This document shows, piece after piece, positions 24,545-31,594 of a stretch of DNA of 64,000 nucleotides. Each line of letters starts with the position of its first letter. Within the stretch, counting starts at the first letter, position 1. The position numbers and the translations under genes are program-made. Below the pieces are notes generated by a model. The model was not told where the DNA came from and ran no database searches. It worked only from the letters and a program-made list of their open reading frames with translations. Source of the DNA: Parcubacteria group bacterium (GTDB lineage Bacteria > Patescibacteriota > Minisyncoccia > JACPHC01); NCBI GenBank assembly GCA_016188775.1, contig JACPHC010000010.1, positions 31,333-95,332 on the forward strand, read 5' to 3'.

Positions 24545-26992
24545 ATGTATCAATACCTTTTTTGGCATTACACCGGCGGCATCAAAGGATTTATTGAAAT
24601 TTGGGGCAATTTCATCGAGTTTTTTTGGAATTATTTTTCCATTAAATTGCTTTCCAAAACGCTTTTCGCTCATTGGCATCGGGATATTTCCAAAAGAGGC
24701 CGAGCTTTTCGTTTTGGAGATTTTTTCCAAACCTTGGCTTTTAACGTTCTTAGCCGAATTATCGGCGCCGTTGTTAGATTAGTTGTTATTTTTGTCGGCC
24801 TGTTTTTTGTCATTTTAGCGATGATACTCGGTTTTCTTTTTTTCATAGTCTGGCTGTTTTTACCCGTTTTTATCATCGGCTGTTTGATTCTGGCTTTTGT
24901 TTTATTAAAAAATAATAATGTTTTCGGCAGTTTATCGTTTTTTGTTTTCGCCGCCTTCGCCGCTTTTTTACCCTGGCGTTTTTATTTAATCGCCTCGGAA
25001 AAAACTCCTTCGGAGCTGACCGAAGAAGAAATTTTGAAATCTTCGTTATTTAATTTGATTTTGCAAAGAGCCGGTATTGATCCGAAAATCGTTGGAAAAA
25101 TAAACGCGGGGAATATTAAGGCGGTTTTGGAAGAACATAATATTGCCGAAGAAGATTTTAACGAGATTATAAGTTGGGTTTTTCGAGAATATTATAAAAA
25201 AAGAGAAGCGAGCCGATTTTGGACCAAAGAAAATTTGGCGCGTCGTCGCGGCCTTGGCAAAAATTGGGCTTACGGATACACGATTAATCTTGATAAATTT
25301 TCCAAAGACTTAGGCGAGTTCGGGGCGGGAAAATTGAAGACAGAGCTTATTGGCCGGGACGAAGACATAGAAATAATCGAGAGAATTCTTTCCCGGGCCG
25401 AGGAAAACAATATTTTGATGATTGGCGAGCCGGGCGCGGGAAGAAAAATGGTTATCCAGGGATTGGCTAATTTAGTTTATGAGGGTATGGTTTTGCCGCC
25501 GCTCAAACACAAAAGAATTTTGGAAATAAATCTTGAAGCGTTAATAGCCAGCGCCGGAGCCGACGGGAATCTCGAGAGTCAATTGGCGCTGGTATTCAAC
25601 GAAGCCGTTGGAGCCGGCAATATTATTTTAGTTATCAATGATTTTCATAATTTCGTGGGCGCGGCTTCCGGAGTCGGCAAAATGGATATTTCCAGTTTTT
25701 TGACGCCGTATCTTTCTTCAAAAAATATTCAGATTATCGGCATTACCGATTATAAAGGGCTTCACCGTAACATGGAGGCTAACCCCGGACTTTTGATGTA
25801 TTTTGAAAAAGTTGAAATCAAAGAACCGGATGAAAAAACTTCAATGCTTATTTTGGAAGATATAGTCGGCCGTTTTGAAAAAAGGAGCAATGTTTTGGTA
25901 ACTTATCCGGCCTTGAAAGAAATAGTCAAACAATCCGCTCGTTATTTAAGCGCCGTTCCTATGCCTGAGCGAGCCATTGATTTGTTGGATGAGTCTATGG
26001 TTTATGCCGCGACCAAAACGGACGACCGGTTTTTAAAAATTGAACATATAGATAAAATTCTTTCAGAGAAAACAAAAATACCAATCGGCGAAGTCGGCAA
26101 AAGCGAAAAAGAAAAATTATCTCAATTGGAAAAAATTTTGCATCAAAGAGTGATTGATCAAGAAGAGGCGATTGTGGCTATTTCTCGGGCGATGAGAAGA
26201 TCGCGTTTGGGCGTTGGGGAGACGAAAAAACCCATTGGGACTTTTCTTTTTCTCGGGCCGACCGGCGTTGGCAAGACCGAGACCGCCAAAGCCTTGAGCG
26301 AAGCTTATTTCGGTTCCGAAGAACGAATGGTCCGTTTTGATATGTCCGAATATCAAAATACCGCTGACATCGCTCGATTAATCGGCTCTCCGGAGGGCGA
26401 ACCCGGAGTTTTAACGACCCGAATCAAGGAAAATCCTTTTTCATTGGTTTTGCTCGATGAACTTGAAAAAGCGCACCCGAATATTTTAAATCTTTTTCTT
26501 CAAGTTTTGGATGAAGGATTTTTAACCGACGCTTGGGGCCGAAAGGTGAATTTTCGGAATACTATCATTATCGCCACTTCCAACGCCGGAGCGGAGTTTA
26601 TCAGGGAAATGATTGAGAAAAATATTAACCCGGTCAAAGAAAAAGAAAAATTAATGGACTTTTTGCAGATGAATTCTCTTTTTAAGCCGGAATTTTTGAA
26701 CCGTTTTGACGAGATTGTTATTTTTCACGCTCTATCAAAAGAAAATCTTGTCAAAATCGCGATTCTGCTTTTGCGAAATTTAGCCAAAAGATTGGCGGAA
26801 CAAAAAATTACTTTATCAATAACTCCGGCCTTGGCCGAACGGGTCGCCGAATTGGGCTATAGTCCGGAATACGGCGCCCGGCCAATGAAGCGAGTGATTC
26901 AGGATAGAGTGGAAGATTTGATTTCAAGAAAATTATTGGACGGATCGCTCAAAAAGGGCGACACTTTGGAAATAAAACCGGAGGAAATTTGA
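24545..26992 (+). CDS. Clp/Hsp100-family double-ring AAA+ ATPase with N-terminal transmembrane domain in place of the Clp_N domain
   Basis: N-terminal ~170 aa with several hydrophobic helices; D1 (IGRDEDIEIIERILSR…GEPGAGRK); D2 (GPTGVGKTETAKALS…SNAG); no IGF/IGL ClpP-docking tripeptide seen. Confidence 0.75.
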   Translation: MYQYLFWHYTGGIKGFIEIWGNFIEFFWNYFSIKLLSKTLFAHWHRDISKRGRAFRFGDFFQTLAFNVLSRIIGAVVRLVVIFVGLFFVILAMILGFLFFIVWLFLPVFIIGCLILAFVLLKNNNVFGSLSFFVFAAFAAFLPWRFYLIASEKTPSELTEEEILKSSLFNLILQRAGIDPKIVGKINAGNIKAVLEEHNIAEEDFNEIISWVFREYYKKREASRFWTKENLARRRGLGKNWAYGYTINLDKFSKDLGEFGAGKLKTELIGRDEDIEIIERILSRAEENNILMIGEPGAGRKMVIQGLANLVYEGMVLPPLKHKRILEINLEALIASAGADGNLESQLALVFNEAVGAGNIILVINDFHNFVGAASGVGKMDISSFLTPYLSSKNIQIIGITDYKGLHRNMEANPGLLMYFEKVEIKEPDEKTSMLILEDIVGRFEKRSNVLVTYPALKEIVKQSARYLSAVPMPERAIDLLDESMVYAATKTDDRFLKIEHIDKILSEKTKIPIGEVGKSEKEKLSQLEKILHQRVIDQEEAIVAISRAMRRSRLGVGETKKPIGTFLFLGPTGVGKTETAKALSEAYFGSEERMVRFDMSEYQNTADIARLIGSPEGEPGVLTTRIKENPFSLVLLDELEKAHPNILNLFLQVLDEGFLTDAWGRKVNFRNTIIIATSNAGAEFIREMIEKNINPVKEKEKLMDFLQMNSLFKPEFLNRFDEIVIFHALSKENLVKIAILLLRNLAKRLAEQKITLSITPALAERVAELGYSPEYGARPMKRVIQDRVEDLISRKLLDGSLKKGDTLEIKPEEI

Positions 26993-27348
26993 TGGTCGCG
27001 ATTACTGAACGAAGCTCGAACCTTTTTCGAGCGAAAATCGCTCGAATGATTTGAAACCCCACCCCAGCGTTTCCGCCCGCCGAAACTCGGCGAGCAAAGC
27101 AAAACAATTTTCTTTTCAATTCTTTAATTTTTCGCGCGACCTTTTTTCTTTTAAAAGGAATTGAAAATTGTTTTGCTTTGATGTCTTGATACCAAGACGG
27201 CGGAAACTCTTCCCACCCCATTGCGCTTACGGCGCAGAACAGGCGGGCAAAAATTCCTTCCCCCCAACCCCCTTCCTTTTTGCCCGCCCGCTGGAAACTC
27301 CCAGCGGATTTTTCGGGCGGCGGGCCCTCAAATTGAGTGGTGGGTGGA

Positions 27349-28791
27349 TTATGTTGATTTTGGGATTAGGTTTTCCGCAACTTTCCTGCCAAGATATGAT
27401 AGCATTTTTCCTTCCTCTTCAAAACTTGTAGCGTCTGCCCAGATTAAATTCGCAATTTTTTGTCCCACCACGACTTCCCACGGTTTTGCGCTACCTATTA
27501 TGCCCATTAGATCATTTCGTACTTCTTTAATATCGTAATTTTTTCTATTGTACCCATCTTCTTTAAATCCGTTCATTACGAAAAAATGCGCATGTTGTGA
27601 ATTTGCTTTAAGCCAAGTTTCAATTCGTTGTTTTAATTCATCCCAAGTAACACTTAACGCCTCCAGAACATCATCAGAGAGCAAAAGATTTTCAGCGTTT
27701 CTACAAGATAATTTCATTCTGACTATCGGCAATAAATCGTCAATTGTTTCCTCGCCATCATCCCTATCTCTCAAAGAGTATCCTTTGGCGTTATCGTAAA
27801 CGGTCTGAACAATCTTTTGCGTCTCTTGTTCAAAGTCATTTATGTTACTAACACTATCAACCGAACAAGGGTATATCTTGATTTTGCCGCCGGCTGACCG
27901 GACAGCTTGTTGCCAAATTCGTTCGTCGTCTTCACCCTCAACTAATAAAATTGGAGCTTCATTAAAGAAATTTGATAGTGGATGCGCTCCAAACACCGGC
28001 AAAACTTTTTTATAAACTTCCGAGATAACTTTAAAATCTAATTCTTTTTGGTCATATACCATAAATGCCAAATGTGTATCGGCGTAGGATTCTAAGGCTC
28101 CCAAAATGGCGGTGCTATGAGTAGCAATTACTACTTGAAAGTTATTTTCAGCAACCAATCCTTTCAAGAAGTGCATCAACCGTACCTGTAAATCTGGGTG
28201 CAAATGCACGTCCGGCTCATCAAGAAATAAGATATTTCCTTTATCCGCCAAACATTCTTTACCAAAGATCAGGCACTCAATTCCCAAAGAAATAAGCTCA
28301 CTTTCGCCACTACTAATTGCGTTCGCGTCTAATTTATTCGTTGTTCCTTTTCGATATATCTCAAATGTCGTTTCGTGTCTTTTTATTTCGATATTGTCCA
28401 GCAAAGAGTTAATTTTATTGACGTAGATATCAAAGGTATAATCATTTTGTTGTCTTTTCTCTTTTTCAATTTCTCTCAAAACCAAGGTCTCAAGTTTACG
28501 ATATTGAGCAACGCTTTGCTGCCTAAATCCTGTTGCCTGATTTCGTCTTCTTTGGCCCGAAAGCCAATTTATATCATTTGTCAGACTTTGTTCAACCCCA
28601 GCCTCATAAATTAGCGCACCGCCTCTTTCCGGTGTGATATATTTCGTTTTGTCATAAGTTCCAGTTTGTGAGGAAAGACCTTGCTCAACCAGCCGAAGCA
28701 TTGTGCTCTTACCAGAGCCGTTCTTACCCAAAACGATATTTATTTTGTTTATGTTTTTTAGCGTATAACCGCTAACATTTGAAATATCCAT
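27349..28791 (-). CDS. OLD-family (overcoming lysogenization defect) nuclease: ABC-type ATPase + Toprim
   Basis: Walker A GKNGSGKST; Walker B/H-loop ILFLDEPDVHLHP; C-terminal Toprim-like LLVEGEDDERI … RDRDDGEE. Confidence 0.65.
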   Translation of the reverse strand: MDISNVSGYTLKNINKINIVLGKNGSGKSTMLRLVEQGLSSQTGTYDKTKYITPERGGALIYEAGVEQSLTNDINWLSGQRRRNQATGFRQQSVAQYRKLETLVLREIEKEKRQQNDYTFDIYVNKINSLLDNIEIKRHETTFEIYRKGTTNKLDANAISSGESELISLGIECLIFGKECLADKGNILFLDEPDVHLHPDLQVRLMHFLKGLVAENNFQVVIATHSTAILGALESYADTHLAFMVYDQKELDFKVISEVYKKVLPVFGAHPLSNFFNEAPILLVEGEDDERIWQQAVRSAGGKIKIYPCSVDSVSNINDFEQETQKIVQTVYDNAKGYSLRDRDDGEETIDDLLPIVRMKLSCRNAENLLLSDDVLEALSVTWDELKQRIETWLKANSQHAHFFVMNGFKEDGYNRKNYDIKEVRNDLMGIIGSAKPWEVVVGQKIANLIWADATSFEEEGKMLSYLGRKVAENLIPKST

Positions 28792-28793
28792 AG

Positions 28794-29249
28794 TTATTTA
28801 ATAGCTTTAAGAATCTTATCAGTAACGATTTTGCTTTCAGACTTTATCTGATGCTCCCAAAATCGCAATACGATCCAACCATTTTTTCGCAGATAAGTCG
28901 TAGTTTTTCTGTCTCGTTTGCGATTGTTTTCTATCTTTTCCCGCCAAAAATCGTTCTTTAGCAAATGCTTCCAGCGTGGGCAATACCAACCGTGCCAGAA
29001 ATTACTATCAAGAAAAATACATACCTTATCTTTTTGAAAAACTATATCTGGTTTTCCCTTGATTGACACAACATTCGCTTGGAATTTTTTGTGAGTAGCT
29101 TTCCCCAAAGAAACTATGAATTCTCGCTCGAATTTTGTGTCTCTGGAACGGATTTTTGCCATTAATTCCGACCGCTTTTTTGTCGGGAGTAAGTCGTCGC
29201 TCCGTTCTTTTTTGAAGTTTCTATTTAGATAGTTTTTCGTCTTTTTCAT
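28794..29249 (-). CDS. vsr: very short patch repair endonuclease
   Basis: DTKFEREF…DIVFQKDKVCIFLDSNFWHGW: Vsr signature. Confidence 0.85.
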   Translation of the reverse strand: MKKTKNYLNRNFKKERSDDLLPTKKRSELMAKIRSRDTKFEREFIVSLGKATHKKFQANVVSIKGKPDIVFQKDKVCIFLDSNFWHGWYCPRWKHLLKNDFWREKIENNRKRDRKTTTYLRKNGWIVLRFWEHQIKSESKIVTDKILKAIK

Positions 29250-30286
29250 AGAAGTCCAGCGTCAAAAATATCGGAAGCTTTGACGCCGGACTTAACGAGG
29301 GAAAATTTATCGTTCAAGAGTTTTTTCCACTGCTTCAAGCGATCACTTTCCAATTTTTCGCTTCTCCAATAGTAAGCGATGGTTTTGGCGTCCATCTCCT
29401 TGATTTTTCTTTCAATCGCTTTCGCTCTAACTTGCAAGCGATAAGCCAGTTGTGGCACTACGACATTTTTGCCTTTCACTTTTAATTTAATTTGACCGCC
29501 AGCCGTGAACAAATCTCGCAAGTTTGCGGATACGGCGTTGTATTCGGCGATAAGATAGGCGGCCGCACGCTCAAACTTTGTCGAGCTGTTACCAAACATT
29601 TCAGGAAACAGAATCATCGCTTCAACCACGAAATTTTCTTTTTCTTTGTCGCTCAAACCTCTGAAAGGCTTAATGATAGGACTAACCGCTTTTCCGTCTC
29701 CGTCTTGATCTATCCACCACAATTCCTCACCCTCTTTTAGTTGTGAGCGATAATAATCCTTGATTTTTTGAATTGGGTTAGTGTCATTCCGTAGCGTGTC
29801 ATAATCAATTCCAATCTTATCGAAAATTGATTTACCTGAAGGCAAATCCATGTTTATTCGATAGCGGGGAGAATGGGTAACGCTAATTTCTGGCAGACAT
29901 TCTTGGTAGAGTCGGTAGCGAACATCCAACTCACCGCCGAATTTTCCAAATACGATATAAATTCTTTCAACATCTTCAATACGTGAAGATTCAAGAACGC
30001 TGTTTCCGGTTGATGTCCAATGATCGTTCGCCGTCATTTTAACTTCAACGCCAAAGTATTTGTTGGCGATGATGTCTGGAAAAGCGTGCGTTCCCGTTTG
30101 TTTAACTGTTCCTTCGAAAGTCGTGCCTTTCGCCGCTTCACGAATTTGCTCAAAAACTATCGTTTCAAAATAAGTCGGCGAGATATTTTTCTTGCCACTC
30201 AAAAAGACCAGCATTAACCCCCTTGATTTTTCAAGCAAGGCGATAAAGTCTTTTTCTTTGGCGTTGGGTTTCGCGACGTAAATCAT
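29246..30286 (-). CDS. type II restriction endonuclease candidate (PD-(D/E)xK)
   Basis: FPDIIANKYFGVEVKM contains PD…(E)VK; flanked by dcm upstream and vsr downstream with 4-bp overlaps. Confidence 0.5.
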   Translation of the reverse strand: MIYVAKPNAKEKDFIALLEKSRGLMLVFLSGKKNISPTYFETIVFEQIREAAKGTTFEGTVKQTGTHAFPDIIANKYFGVEVKMTANDHWTSTGNSVLESSRIEDVERIYIVFGKFGGELDVRYRLYQECLPEISVTHSPRYRINMDLPSGKSIFDKIGIDYDTLRNDTNPIQKIKDYYRSQLKEGEELWWIDQDGDGKAVSPIIKPFRGLSDKEKENFVVEAMILFPEMFGNSSTKFERAAAYLIAEYNAVSANLRDLFTAGGQIKLKVKGKNVVVPQLAYRLQVRAKAIERKIKEMDAKTIAYYWRSEKLESDRLKQWKKLLNDKFSLVKSGVKASDIFDAGLL

Positions 30287-30288
30287 AG

Positions 30289-31260
30289 TTATTTCAAATT
30301 TTTATCTAAAAACTTTTCAATCGCCGTGGCGACATGCCAAGCTAAAACAGGCGGCACGGCGTTGCCAATCTGCTTATAAGCCGAGGAAGTGGACGGATAA
30401 AACACAAAATCGTCTGGAAAAGATTGAATCCGTGCCGCCTCTCTCGCCGACAATCTCCTTTTTCCGTTCCAATGATACTCTATGTTTCCGTGGTGTTCCG
30501 TTCGCATTGTTGGCCCCGGCTTATCCGCCGAGACGACCGAATTCCCTTGCCCGTTATTCTTTTTTGCCTTTGACCAGTAGTGATTGGCGATATTCCCTTC
30601 CTCCGCTTTCTCTAAATCGCCAATTGCTTGTTTTAAGCTAACCCAGCTTTTTTCGTCCAAAATCGGTTTTGGATGTTCAAAAGGAGGAAGTTTGTCTTTT
30701 CTTGTTCCAACAATAATAACTCTCTCTCGTGTTTGCGGCACTCCGTAATCAGCGGCCGTGAGTAATTTATAAACGACATGGTATCCCAATTTTTCAAAAT
30801 CCTTAATAATCGTTTGTATCGCTTCACCGCCGTTCATTGTGAGAAGTCCTCGGACATTTTCAGCGACAAATAAAACAGGTTTAGTTCTCTTGATAACTTC
30901 CGCCATGCTTTGATAAAGCAATCCTCGTTTACTATTAAATCCTTTTCTCTTTCCGGCATGGCTAAAATCTTGACAAGGAAAGCCGCCAAGCACTATATCC
31001 ACTTTTTGCGGGATTGGTTTTTCAAAAAAGCCCGAATTGTGTTTGCCGTCAAGAATTTTTCCGATATCGCCGCAAACTATATCGTGCTTAAAGTATTTTC
31101 TAAAGGTGGCACAGGCGGCCTCGTCAATATCGTTCGCCCAAGCAATCTCAAAGTTTCTTTTCGCGTATTTTTTGCCTAAAAATTCAAAATCGCCGACGAA
31201 GCCAAGATCGAGGCCACCGCAGCCCGCAAAAAGTGAAATTATGGAAAATTGTTTCTTCAT
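30289..31260 (-). CDS. dcm: DNA (cytosine-5)-methyltransferase
   Basis: Motif I FAGCGGLDLGF; motif IV GFPCQDFS; motif VI ENVRGL. Confidence 0.9.
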   Translation of the reverse strand: MKKQFSIISLFAGCGGLDLGFVGDFEFLGKKYAKRNFEIAWANDIDEAACATFRKYFKHDIVCGDIGKILDGKHNSGFFEKPIPQKVDIVLGGFPCQDFSHAGKRKGFNSKRGLLYQSMAEVIKRTKPVLFVAENVRGLLTMNGGEAIQTIIKDFEKLGYHVVYKLLTAADYGVPQTRERVIIVGTRKDKLPPFEHPKPILDEKSWVSLKQAIGDLEKAEEGNIANHYWSKAKKNNGQGNSVVSADKPGPTMRTEHHGNIEYHWNGKRRLSAREAARIQSFPDDFVFYPSTSSAYKQIGNAVPPVLAWHVATAIEKFLDKNLK

Positions 31261-31520: not shown

Positions 31521-31594
31521 TGGTCGGACCACCCGGAATCGAACCGGGGCTATACCCACCCCAAGGGTACGGACTGCCACTATCCGATGGTCCG
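31521..31594 (-). tRNA. tRNA-Pro (anticodon GGG), CCA encoded
   Basis: Folds by hand into a cloverleaf: acceptor CGGACCA/TGGTCCG, D-loop AGTGGCA, anticodon stem TACCC/GGGTA with loop TTGGGGT, T-arm CCCGG-TTCGATT-CCGGG, 3' ACCA. Confidence 0.8.

Follow-up and report, generated by a model that had tools for sequence, protein, structure and literature searches.

What kind of protein is encoded by gene X, and why does this gene stand directly behind the genes of a type II RM system? The window, which is the whole stretch of 64,000 nucleotides from a Parcubacteria group bacterium that was analyzed, carries the gene on its reverse strand, and a preliminary description had read it as a lone, unusually short class-1-like OLD nuclease. 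However, X closes a tight four-gene operon, C5-methylase/REase/Vsr/X (Table 1), with its ATG only 2 nt past the Vsr stop codon, and can therefore not be regarded as a lone gene. Its neighbors here are the Vsr, REase and MTase genes and a clpB-like gene. The absence of a UvrD-like partner, which had been pointed out before, is confirmed for the vicinity of X, and a partner gene conserved across the 44 loci compared is likewise absent, which backs the autonomy of X. No RT-like ORF is present within 22–34 kb of the window, and an Rfam scan of 26.9–31.7 kb returned a tRNA-Pro only. This tRNA-Pro borders the block of RM genes and X; an att-like direct repeat, looked for at the island boundaries of the block, was not found. 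Upstream of X there is no conserved junction or promoter, as homology among the relatives begins at the ATG, and promoter and terminator scans at the locus gave nothing above shuffled expectation. A structured RNA 3' of X as part of the system was considered and rejected, as the region yields no Rfam match and is not a repeat, and no comparable spacer follows X in relatives.

Table 1. Coordinates of gene X, its predicted domains and motifs, and the preceding RM genes (positions in the window)
Feature	Position	Strand	Residues or length	Remarks
Gene X, ABC-ATPase/Toprim-like nuclease fusion	27349..28791	-	480 aa	ATG start; from ORF list
ABC ATPase head	28027..28791	-	1-255	
Walker A/P-loop GKNGSGKST	28702..28728	-	22-30	K28; from translation
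ABC signature-like motif SSGESELISL	28285..28314	-	160-169	aligns with AriA 'ssgerqll'
Walker B and D-loop ILFLDEPDVHLHP	28195..28233	-	187-199	D191, E192
H-loop/switch histidine in ATHST	28111..28125	-	223-227	H225
Linker motif LPVFGAHPLS	27973..28002	-	264-273	between ATPase and Toprim-like part
C-terminal half	27349..28026	-	256-480	Toprim-like core ~278-372, helical tail ~373-480
Putative Toprim motif 1 LLVEGEDDERI	27916..27948	-	282-292	putative catalytic E285, second acidic ligand D289
Putative Toprim motif 2 SLRDRDDGEE	27748..27777	-	339-348	DxD pair D342, D344
Putative motif 3 CRNAENL	27685..27705	-	363-369	E367, N368
C5 cytosine DNA methyltransferase	30289..31260	-	323 aa	first gene of block; Pfam DNA_methylase 2.5e-80; TIGR00675 dcm 4.1e-77
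Type II restriction endonuclease	29246..30286	-	346 aa	PADLOC REase_II PDLC03508 5.7e-46; 4-nt overlap with Vsr
Vsr very-short-patch repair endonuclease	28794..29249	-	151 aa	TIGR00632 vsr 8.6e-29 (above cut-off); Pfam Vsr 5.8e-16

Since X fuses an ABC-type ATPase (AAA_15/AAA_21) to a Toprim-like nuclease domain, it is a member of the OLD superfamily. The ATPase is recognized by Pfam AAA_21 and AAA_15 with scores over their cut-offs, its N-terminal position in the protein is marked by the complete set of Walker A, signature, Walker B and H-loop, and the motifs with the putative catalytic Glu and the DxD pair are present in the C-terminal part; all motif strings quoted in the preliminary description are found in the translation. 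Within the superfamily X belongs to a family of compact ATPase-Toprim proteins that carries no name and has 1775 database homologs. The protein is indeed shorter than the PADLOC Old profile (578 positions), GajA (~627) and AriAB (694), but its length is the norm of the family: 118 of the 120 top database homologs have 474-498 aa, and the full-length representatives from an exhaustive search mostly have ~470-520 aa. The compactness is thus not the peculiarity of a minimal variant, as had been suggested, and it is shared with HEC-04 and IbfA. Of the long relatives, one contains a Ulp1-like protease domain, and in two the ATPase insert is enlarged.

Conservation, assessed in two alignments of 28 and 24 homologs with 41-85% identity, shows that the quoted motifs did not arise by chance. 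In both, G22, K23, N24, G25, G27, K28 and S29 of Walker A and S160, S161, G162 and E163 of the signature motif are invariant, and in the 28 sequences so are E165, I167, S168 and L169 of the signature motif. L188 to Q202 are invariant in the family alignments as well, and the motif ILFLDEPDVHLHP within this region aligns with the Walker B regions of AriA, PtuA, GajA and OLD. This motif had been labeled “Walker B/H-loop”, of which the Walker B part holds; the remainder is the D-loop with the 'LHP' hallmark of AAA_15/21, whereas the H-loop histidine is H225 in IATHST, which lies outside ILFLDEPDVHLHP (T224, H225 and S226 invariant in both alignments, T227 in that of 28 sequences). Walker A and the signature motif are only ~130 residues apart. 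In the full-length AF2 model (pLDDT 80.5) the space between them is occupied by a short helical insert of ~70 residues (~57-128), which consists of one long helix (76-110) and short elements with pLDDT 43-71 and stands where a long coiled coil or dimerization domain would be. The ABC head and a Toprim-type strand-helix alternation are modeled; apart from this low-confidence insert no dimerization domain is recognizable in the model. Behind the head, the linker motif LPVFGAHPLS is invariant at 41-85% identity and still recognizable in the 34%-identical homolog of E. coli; residues 269-276 of the linker have an AF2 pLDDT below 50.

The C-terminal half is most likely Toprim-like, as suggested by its motifs, the full-length AF2 model and sub-threshold HMM matches. 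Both alignments show invariant E285, G286, D288 and D289 in motif 1, where E285 is placed at the end of a predicted strand, S339, L340, R341, D342 and D344 in motif 2, in which RDRDDGEE comprises residues 341-348, and C363, E367, N368 and L369 in motif 3. The Toprim hallmarks noticed before thus stand up to closer inspection, since the acidic motif set is present, E285 and the DxD residues D342 and D344 do not vary in the 28- and 24-homolog alignments, and the model predicts strands 281-284, 307-310, 337-341 and 356-360 with helices between them. The pLDDT of this core is ~59-86 (10-residue block means), and the helical tail ~373-480 is modeled confidently. When the C-terminal half is searched in isolation, it gives only weak matches, namely to AriAB (2.6e-5), AriB (2.7e-3) and DUF4435 (PF14491; E 0.018, 15.2 bits against a cut-off of 27 bits), and weak DUF4435 matches occur in 17 of 24 family members (best 4.8e-5). 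Against 1.84 billion proteins, an exhaustive HMMER run with the C-terminal profile does not leave a set of 334 representatives, and judged from these searches the C-terminal domain is a small separate, self-contained family. The C-terminal alignment profile matched no solved structure among the PDB sequences, and a model of the C-terminal part alone reached pLDDT 40-57 in the Toprim part, with no Foldseek match below E = 1.

Among known defense systems, PARIS is closest to X. In the profile comparison the fused PARIS protein AriAB is the best PADLOC defense model (1.1e-26), whereas Old reaches only 2.8e-13 and Toprim_OLD is not matched. AriAB is also the best match for three divergent family members (1e-26 to 1e-19), and the match always spans the C-terminal half of the ATPase through the Toprim core. 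Furthermore, X has an ABC ATPase of the AAA_15/21 type of AriA, which is its best sequence match among solved structures (8.8e-7). The three putative Toprim motifs are spaced as in the AriB core: there, E26 is followed by core residues 80-87, which fits the distance from E285 to the DxD pair, and motif 3 of X at E285 +82 corresponds to AriB core residues 109-115 relative to E26. Merged AriAB, which represents OLD class 4 and combines the ABC ATPase AriA with the DUF4435 Toprim tRNase AriB, is a single-chain ATPase-Toprim protein like X. However, X is ~200 residues shorter than the AriAB profile and matches only its positions ~290-529. It is devoid of the long coiled-coil inserts IS1 and IS2, which build the hexamer of AriA (PMC11464382), its DUF4435 match stays below the Pfam cut-off, and its C-terminal profile is confined to its own 334-member family.

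HEC-04 (490 aa) and IbfA (518 aa) are validated single-chain ABC ATPase-Toprim phage-defense proteins that reside within Hma systems and on IncI1 plasmids; they have the same domain order as X and are nearly equal in size. HEC-04 was discovered via “guilt by embedding” inside another methylase-containing defense system, and its activity in defense depends on the lysine of Walker A and on the E/DxD residues of the Toprim domain. The distance between the Walker A lysine and the Toprim glutamate is 257 residues in HEC-04 and identical in X, and the E-to-DxD distances are 56/58 (E319, D375, D377) compared to 57/59 in X. This spacing suggested that X might be HEC-04/IbfA itself, which was ruled out by BLASTP and hhalign: in the comparison with the first 399 of the 490 residues of HEC-04 (WP_044502283.1), BLASTP aligned the Walker A and Walker B segments only (E 3e-4 over 56 residues, and 6e-3), and hhalign gave the ATPase a probability of 43% and the C-terminal half one of 0.1%. 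A sequence relationship is thus undetectable beyond the ATPase motifs, the HEC-04 model is not among the C-terminal PADLOC matches of X, and X has a helical tail and a linker motif of its own.

The linkage to RM genes is not restricted to this locus. At ≥62% identity, 12 of 18 relatives are RM-adjacent, and at least eight different RM kinds are found beside these close relatives, covering types I-like, II, IIS, IIG and III. The gene is usually located 3' on the same strand, 2-12 nt past the preceding stop codon, in four loci (L004, L039, L059, L060) it is inserted between RM subunits, and the same RM+X block was found in two different downstream contexts. This RM linkage of the close relatives, a mostly Patescibacteria-rich clade, is a new observation. 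By contrast, RM genes are nearby in only five of 40 distant relatives. Other neighbors include AbiJ, HEPN, Schlafen-like, recombinase and conjugation genes, and many distant homologs adjoin housekeeping genes. Beside the 44 genome homologs no Vsr, C5-MTase or REase of the type present in the window was found, and all-against-all clustering of the neighbors at these loci yielded no family in more than four of them. Because neither a neighbor family nor an RM partner recurs there, the idea of a fixed multi-gene system around X was dropped. The homologs are patchily distributed and horizontally transferred across many phyla; in E. coli the gene (WP_000868467.1) is accessory, as it is present in 28 of 5426 genomes (0.5%), where it adjoins an IS fragment. 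A phage collection contained no full-length homolog, and the family is essentially absent from a plasmid collection, in which the sole full-length match is a mislabeled E. coli chromosome.

Taken together, X is probably a compact OLD-superfamily nuclease that works by itself against phages, acts as an abortive-infection effector and is co-expressed with the RM system as a second line of defense. This reading is supported by the architecture, the kinship with AriAB, the RM linkage of close relatives, the other defense and mobile-element neighbors, the accessory status in E. coli and the precedents HEC-04, IbfA, AriB and P2 OLD, whereas the results with the phage and plasmid collections and the housekeeping neighbors of many distant homologs speak against it. 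The N-terminal ABC ATPase head would be a nucleotide-dependent sensor or switch, and the C-terminal two-metal Toprim nuclease would be the effector. Since X ends a type II RM operon as its fourth gene, it would be transcribed with the C5-methylase, the restriction enzyme and the Vsr repair nickase and be made together with this first-line defense. We infer an ATP-controlled activation, in which the resting protein is most likely an inactive oligomer that is switched on by an infection cue, whereupon the putative Toprim site of E285, D289, D342, D344 and E367 would cut nucleic acid and thereby abort the infection. The leading candidate for the substrate is tRNA, because of the analogy with AriB and P2 OLD, which both cleave tRNA, the latter as an abortive-infection tRNase; DNA, the substrate of GajA and TsOLD, is the alternative.

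The position of X could also point to a more specific task, i.e., that X keeps watch over the RM system next to it or detects anti-restriction proteins of phages, and becomes active only once restriction is blocked, in the manner of PrrC with EcoprrI and Stp, and of PARIS with Ocr. In favor of this, X directly follows RM genes on their 3' side in 12 of the 18 close contexts, with tight coupling, and separates RM subunits in four loci; its nearest defense model, PARIS, is triggered by anti-restriction proteins (Ocr, Stp) and cleaves tRNA-Lys. PrrC, which is a back-up when restriction is inhibited, is a precedent for an RM-embedded nuclease with an ABC-like NTPase: like X, PrrC and RloC combine an ABC-type NTPase with a C-terminal nuclease, and their genes lie co-oriented within RM operons or as the last gene of these. 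The nuclease domain of PrrC/RloC is not known to be of the Toprim type; PrrC and RloC models are not among the reported matches of X, the C-terminal half of which carries putative Toprim motifs. However, PrrC goes with a single type Ic system, but X with many RM kinds, and since these are at least eight unrelated ones, a specific contact with an RM enzyme is unlikely. Moreover, 35 of the 40 distant homologs, including that of E. coli, have no RM system nearby, fusions to RM parts are absent among the 150 listed representatives, of which the long relatives were inspected, and the adjacency is also accounted for by shared regulation or co-mobility. We therefore consider such a guarding function possible, but rather unlikely.

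A bolder and more doubtful version is that the X type is a portable “restriction back-up cassette”, i.e., a generic guard for the 3' end of any RM operon (I, II, IIS, IIG, III), which senses RM failure and then cleaves tRNA. The cue would be common to all RM failures rather than the RM proteins themselves, with DNA-mimic anti-restriction proteins or replicating unmodified DNA as candidates, and the Toprim-mediated tRNA cleavage would stop translation. The invariant, apparently disordered FGAHPLS linker might serve as an autoinhibitory latch between sensor and nuclease.

That X is a classical class 1 OLD protein, hence a minimal ATP-dependent DNA exo/endonuclease that works on its own as P2 Old and T. 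scotoductus OLD (TsOLD) do, is improbable. Neither these two proteins nor X have an obligatory partner gene, the Old match and that of the NCBIfam model retron_eff_Eco8 (NF038234; 4.2e-12, 45.5 bits against a cut-off of 250) begin at Walker B and run into Toprim motif 1, and TsOLD (6p74) is among the Foldseek matches of the full-length model. However, the Old profile scores 13 orders of magnitude worse than AriAB, Toprim_OLD (PF20469) has no match in X (E up to 10) or in any of the 24 members (E up to 1), and the sequence match to TsOLD is borderline (E 0.039, confined to the Walker B region). X is also shorter than the Old profile, and in the model its ATPase shows, apart from the low-confidence insert of ~70 residues, no recognizable dimerization domain. 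Class 1 is defined by single genes away from other defense genes (PMC10568477), contrary to X, which here and in most close relatives adjoins other defense genes. The designation as class-1-like thus fails by sequence as well as by context. The ABC ATPase-Toprim fold is also common to X, GajA of Gabija and retron Eco8, and Foldseek aligned GajA and the retron Eco8 OLD nuclease with the full-length model over 463-475 columns. However, the UvrD/PcrA/Rep-like helicase GajB of Gabija is absent beside X, as is the reverse transcriptase or ncRNA partner of retron Eco8 (class 3), and the helical insert that class 2 has in its Toprim domain is missing from X, in agreement with its shorter length.

It is very unlikely that X is an accessory of the RM system that degrades REase-cut DNA in an ATP-dependent manner, the job of RecBCD elsewhere, a function of this type that the reduced genomes of Patescibacteria may lack. 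The constant 3' place in RM operons of the close, mostly Patescibacteria-rich clade would fit, and P2 Old and TsOLD show 5'-3' exonuclease activity in vitro (PMC10568477). Yet the RM partners are too diverse, stand-alone homologs occur in RecBCD-containing bacteria (E. coli, Legionella, Halomonas), and according to recent work the physiological target of P2 OLD is tRNA, not DNA. Weak SMC_N (7.7e-7) and AAA_23 matches and the cohesin and Rad50 heads among the fold matches could point to an SMC/RecF/RecN-like housekeeping ATPase of DNA repair that has no role as a nuclease, but this is almost certainly not the explanation: the SMC_N score of 29 bits falls short of the cut-off of 40, the acidic residues of the Toprim motifs do not vary, the distribution is patchy and horizontal, with only 0.5% of the E. 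coli genomes, and the neighborhoods contain defense and mobile-element genes. With this SMC_N score, X does not have its best homology among such ATPases without a Toprim domain, which would have overturned the preliminary description.

ABC-ATPase/Toprim proteins such as OLD, Gabija, PARIS and HEC-04 form one of the major groups of anti-phage effectors and are under active study. The family of X is a good, although not revolutionary, candidate for a new anti-phage defense gene, because it stands repeatedly at the tail end of unrelated RM operons. It is among the smallest versions of this architecture, and as its coiled-coil/dimerization insert is cut to ~70 residues, X could serve as a tractable minimal model. 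PADLOC v2.0.0 has no model for the family, and Pfam and NCBIfam recognize only the ATPase half; therefore, current defense finders would probably miss X. Since a homolog is present in 28 complete E. coli genomes, the family is directly testable. The attachment to RM systems widens “guilt by embedding” from type I RM, BREX, DISARM and Hma to types II, IIS, IIG and III, and it points to layered RM-plus-abortive-infection operons in Patescibacteria, the immune systems of which are poorly known.

The N-terminal half of the 480-aa protein under study, here called X, is an ABC ATPase, recognized by the Pfam models AAA_21 (1.3e-16) and AAA_15 (6e-16), both above their cut-offs, with SMC_N staying below its Pfam cut-off. 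A full-length AlphaFold model (mean pLDDT 80.5, pTM 0.70), built on an alignment of 28 database homologs with 63-85% identity (A1), has strands at residues 281-284, 307-310, 337-341, and 356-360 alternating with helices in the C-terminal half, and places E285 directly after strand 1 and D342 directly after strand 3, as in Toprim domains. In Foldseek searches the model aligns with GajA (8u7i_A, 8x5i_D) and the retron Eco8 OLD nuclease (9lpa_B) over 463-475 columns, and thus well past the ATPase head of about 200 aligned residues. [quoted passage not shown] The predicted Toprim fold is based on the motifs, on sub-threshold HMM matches and on a medium-confidence region of the full-length model; a model of the C-terminal half alone was of poor quality.

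Features of X and of the operon in which it lies (window nucleotides unless given as residues of X)
Feature	Position	Strand	Remark
tRNA-Pro(GGG)	31521-31594	minus	directly upstream of the MTase-REase-Vsr-X block
C5 cytosine methyltransferase (MTase)	31260..30289	minus	Pfam 2.5e-80
Type II restriction endonuclease (REase)	30286..29246	minus	PADLOC REase_II 5.7e-46
Vsr mismatch endonuclease	29249..28794	minus	TIGR00632 8.6e-29
X	28791..27349	minus	ATG-initiated, 480 aa; last of four tightly packed genes
Walker A GKNGSGKST	residues 22-30		from translation
Walker B + D-loop ILFLDEPDVHLHP	residues 187-199		from translation
Linker LPxFGAHPLS	27973-28002, residues 264-273		between ATPase and Toprim domains
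Toprim motif LLVEGEDDERI	residues 282-292		from translation
Toprim motif RDRDDGEE	residues 341-348		from translation

X is identical to P0001, a database protein from a Parcubacteria group MAG annotated as 'AAA family ATPase', and its translation contains all motifs that had been quoted before, although the segment designated Walker B/H-loop comprises Walker B plus the D-loop and the H-loop histidine is H225. In A1, the P-loop (G22, K23, N24, G25, G27, K28, S29), the ABC-signature-like SSGE (S160-E163), the Walker B and D-loop stretch L188-Q202 and the switch histidine region (T224, H225, S226) are invariant. Invariant in A1 and also in a second alignment (A2), made of 24 C-terminal halves with 44-69% identity that come from genomes across many phyla, are the three acidic motifs in this half, E285-G286-x-D288-D289, S339-L340-R341-D342-x-D344 and C363...E367-N368-L369, which include all Toprim E/DxD residues (E285, D342, D344). 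The motifs are therefore under strong constraint, with both the ATPase and the Toprim sets intact and under strong purifying selection. The linker between the two domains is modelled as disordered and matches none of the known motifs; it is invariant down to 41% identity, still recognizable in a 34% identical Escherichia coli homolog, and may be a latch or docking element.

X had been regarded as unusually short. However, 118 of the best 120 database homologs have 474-498 aa, and the 34 intact genome homologs as well as the full-length representatives from an exhaustive search are of similar length, so that X, at 480 aa, has the usual size of its family and is not truncated. Its compactness is mainly due to the short insert that separates Walker A from the signature motif, which has about 70 residues and is modelled at low confidence, with one long helix at residues 76-110. 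Compact validated proteins of this architecture are already known with HEC-04 (490 aa) and IbfA (518 aa). Rare long relatives (P0145, P0190, P0208) occur among the exhaustive-search representatives: one of 1153 aa has an N-terminal Ulp1/RickCE-like cysteine protease domain before the ATPase, and two of about 880 aa have an ATPase insert enlarged by about 250 residues.

Since the Walker A lysine and the Toprim glutamate are 257 residues apart in both HEC-04 and X, identity with this family was tested directly, using the first 399 of the 490 HEC-04 residues (preprint Table S2). Defence by HEC-04 requires the Walker A lysine and the Toprim E/DxD residues, and the mutated residues K62, E319, D375, and D377 correspond to K28, E285, D342, and D344 of X. 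BLASTP aligned only the Walker A (E 6e-3) and Walker B (3e-4) segments, and hhalign assigned a probability of 43% to the ATPase segment but of 0.1% to the Toprim part; judged by sequence over these 399 residues, X belongs to another family, and the common geometry would be convergent or very distantly shared.

Within the OLD superfamily, the proposal that X is class-1-like and unusually short is only partly supported. Pfam Toprim_OLD matches neither the C-terminal half of X at E values up to 10 nor any of 24 family members, and PADLOC ranks the fused PARIS AriAB (1.1e-26) before GajA (1.7e-15) and Old (2.8e-13). This ranking recurs in three divergent members, which come from a gammaproteobacterial MAG, Halomonas, and Paraconexibacter. 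The isolated C-terminal half matches AriAB (2.6e-5) and AriB (2.7e-3) only, AriA is the best sequence match among solved structures (8.8e-7), and the sole recurring C-terminal match is the AriB-type Toprim family DUF4435, which is weak and below cut-off (15.2 bits for X, cut-off 27; 17/24 members, best 4.8e-5). Moreover, the Toprim motif spacing of X (E285, +57/59, +82) fits the AriB core with E26, residues 80-87, and residues 109-115 (PMC12409363). Nevertheless, X is no bona fide merged AriAB, as its match is confined to positions ~290-529 of a profile with 694 positions, its length falls about 200 residues short, and it has no room for IS1 and IS2, the coiled-coil inserts from which the AriA hexamer is assembled. 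When 1.84 billion representative proteins were searched exhaustively by HMMER with a C-terminal family profile, only 334 proteins were reached at E <=1e-3 (147 at <=1e-30), almost all of ~470-520 aa with the domain at residues ~255-485; the C-terminal half is hence a small self-contained family, for which HMMER gives no tie to the large DUF4435 and Toprim_OLD families. The DUF4276 protein HEC-01B carries the pattern MRDQD...ACRELEAFYLAD, which recurs in X (residues 339-372) as LRDRD...SCRNAENLLLSD. Although hhalign does not score this match as significant, the likeness hints at a possible shared OLD-like Toprim lineage taking in DUF4276 and DUF4435.

Within the methyltransferase-REase-Vsr-X block, the MTase and REase genes are 2 nt apart, those of REase and Vsr overlap by 4 nt, and X again follows Vsr after 2 nt. 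The MTase-REase (30284-30304) and Vsr-X (28789-28809) junctions share an identical 11-nt AAATAACTATG (stop codon, 2 nt, ATG), which suggests translational coupling of one design. A tRNA gene is a typical island insertion site; neither an integrase nor an att-like direct repeat was found at the tRNA-Pro(GGG) and this block. As described before, a UvrD-like partner is absent around X in the window, and so is a reverse transcriptase. Between X and a convergent clpB-like gene ending at 26992 lies an unusually G+C-rich spacer of 356 nt (26993-27348). It folds into several long hairpins, and in this is far superior to shuffled sequences (z = -5.79). It belongs to no Rfam family, is not repeated within the window, has no comparable counterpart downstream of X in relatives, and may simply be a pair of terminators.

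Homologs with 41-78% identity were found at 44 loci of species-representative genomes in a horizontal, patchy distribution comprising Patescibacteria, Gamma- and Alphaproteobacteria (Legionella, Halomonas, Salinisphaera, Herbaspirillum), Actinomycetota, Bacteroidota, Cyanobium, Planctomycetes, Verrucomicrobia, and others. Homologs of the Vsr, MTase, and REase of the window are present nearby at 0/44 loci, and no neighbour family recurs at more than four; therefore X has no obligatory partner gene. RM and mobile-element genes are abundant among the neighbours, and X resides in defence islands and RM operons. Among close relatives, inspected one by one with Pfam-annotated genes, X follows C-protein, D12 MTase, AlwI REase, and N4/N6 MTase at 2 nt (P0004, 84%), C-protein, MTase, and HinfI REase (P0007, 81%), an MTase-S fusion and HsdS at 2 nt (P0030, 78%), an Eco57I-like type IIG enzyme and one ORF (L001, 78%), a BglII system (P0038, 76%), type III Mod and Res (P0043, 75%; P0062, 70%), or HsdM/HsdS (L011, L036). 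It lies near an Alw26I system (P0064, 70%) or between MTase and HsdS (L039), and in P0102, P0111, and L004 (63-64%) it is flanked by a Mod-like methylase on one side and a Res-like helicase on the other. By a seed-based count with Pfam tables over 58 distinct contexts, X is RM-linked in 12/18 at >=62% identity and in 5/40 below, with at least eight kinds of RM partners; by a rough estimate of a few methylases per 1-5 Mb genome, one would lie <=3 kb from a random gene in ~1-3% of cases. The RM-X block of P0004 occurs in two different downstream contexts and therefore moves as a unit. In relatives no sequence is conserved upstream of X: the homology starts with the ATG, which usually follows the stop codon of the gene before it after 2-12 nt. 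This implies that X would be co-transcribed with the RM genes.

At L059 (3569-10449), L060 (2-5223), and L004, X lies between an 806-aa N6_N4 methylase and a ~990-aa helicase (ResIII/DEAD/SWI2_SNF2/YagJ), an arrangement reminiscent of a type III-like or Hma-like (helicase, methylase, ATPase) system, in which X would be either an embedded gene or the ATPase component. Candidate defence genes tightly coupled upstream of X homologs encode a 1010-aa RelA/SpoT-domain protein (L007, 4315-7344) and an AbiJ_NTD4 + DUF7014 protein (L021, 6827-7972). Downstream of X at the P0007 locus (L049, 7674-9797), four short ORFs with HSDR_N, ResIII, T1R_D3, and EcoR124_C fragments together resemble a decayed HsdR gene of type I. 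The full-length E. coli homolog WP_000868467.1 (34% identical, E 6e-96), annotated only as 'AAA family ATPase', is present in 28/5426 complete E. coli genomes, alone between yfgI and guaA and adjoining an IS fragment. The 4.9-Mb E. coli record L045 (NZ_CP134663.1), labelled 'plasmid unnamed1' in a plasmid collection, is evidently a chromosome, so that this single full-length 'plasmid' match is no evidence of plasmid carriage of the family.

Single-chain ABC-ATPase/Toprim defence proteins are already known with P2 Old, merged AriAB, and HEC-04/IbfA, and genes of this sort have been described as embedded within Hma, BREX, DISARM, and type I RM systems (bioRxiv 10.1101/2024.01.29.577857). The X family itself is new: PADLOC contains no model for it, no curated Pfam model is passed by the C-terminal half, and the NCBIfam matches are sub-threshold and restricted to the ATPase region. 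New are also the very compact ATPase insert, the invariant FGAHPLS linker, and the promiscuous 3' attachment to type II, IIS, IIG, and III RM operons, mostly in uncultivated small-genome bacteria.

ABC-ATPase/Toprim proteins are known to sense infection and, in response, to set free or switch on a two-metal nuclease. AriA senses Ocr, upon which AriB cuts tRNA-Lys (PMC11464382, PMC12409363), P2 OLD is inactive as a tetramer and cleaves tRNA once destabilized (bioRxiv 10.64898/2026.07.10.737580), and GajA and TsOLD cut DNA (PMC10568477). In a stronger version of an RM-linked function, X would guard the RM system by sensing anti-restriction proteins or RM failure, like PrrC and PARIS. This would fit the operon position, but it is weakened by the diversity of the RM partners and by the distant homologs, of which the great majority lack an RM system in the vicinity, and we consider it rather improbable. 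By analogy, X most likely acts on its own as an abortive-infection nuclease, which would cleave tRNA as the leading candidate substrate, or alternatively DNA, and would be co-expressed with the RM system as a second layer of defence.
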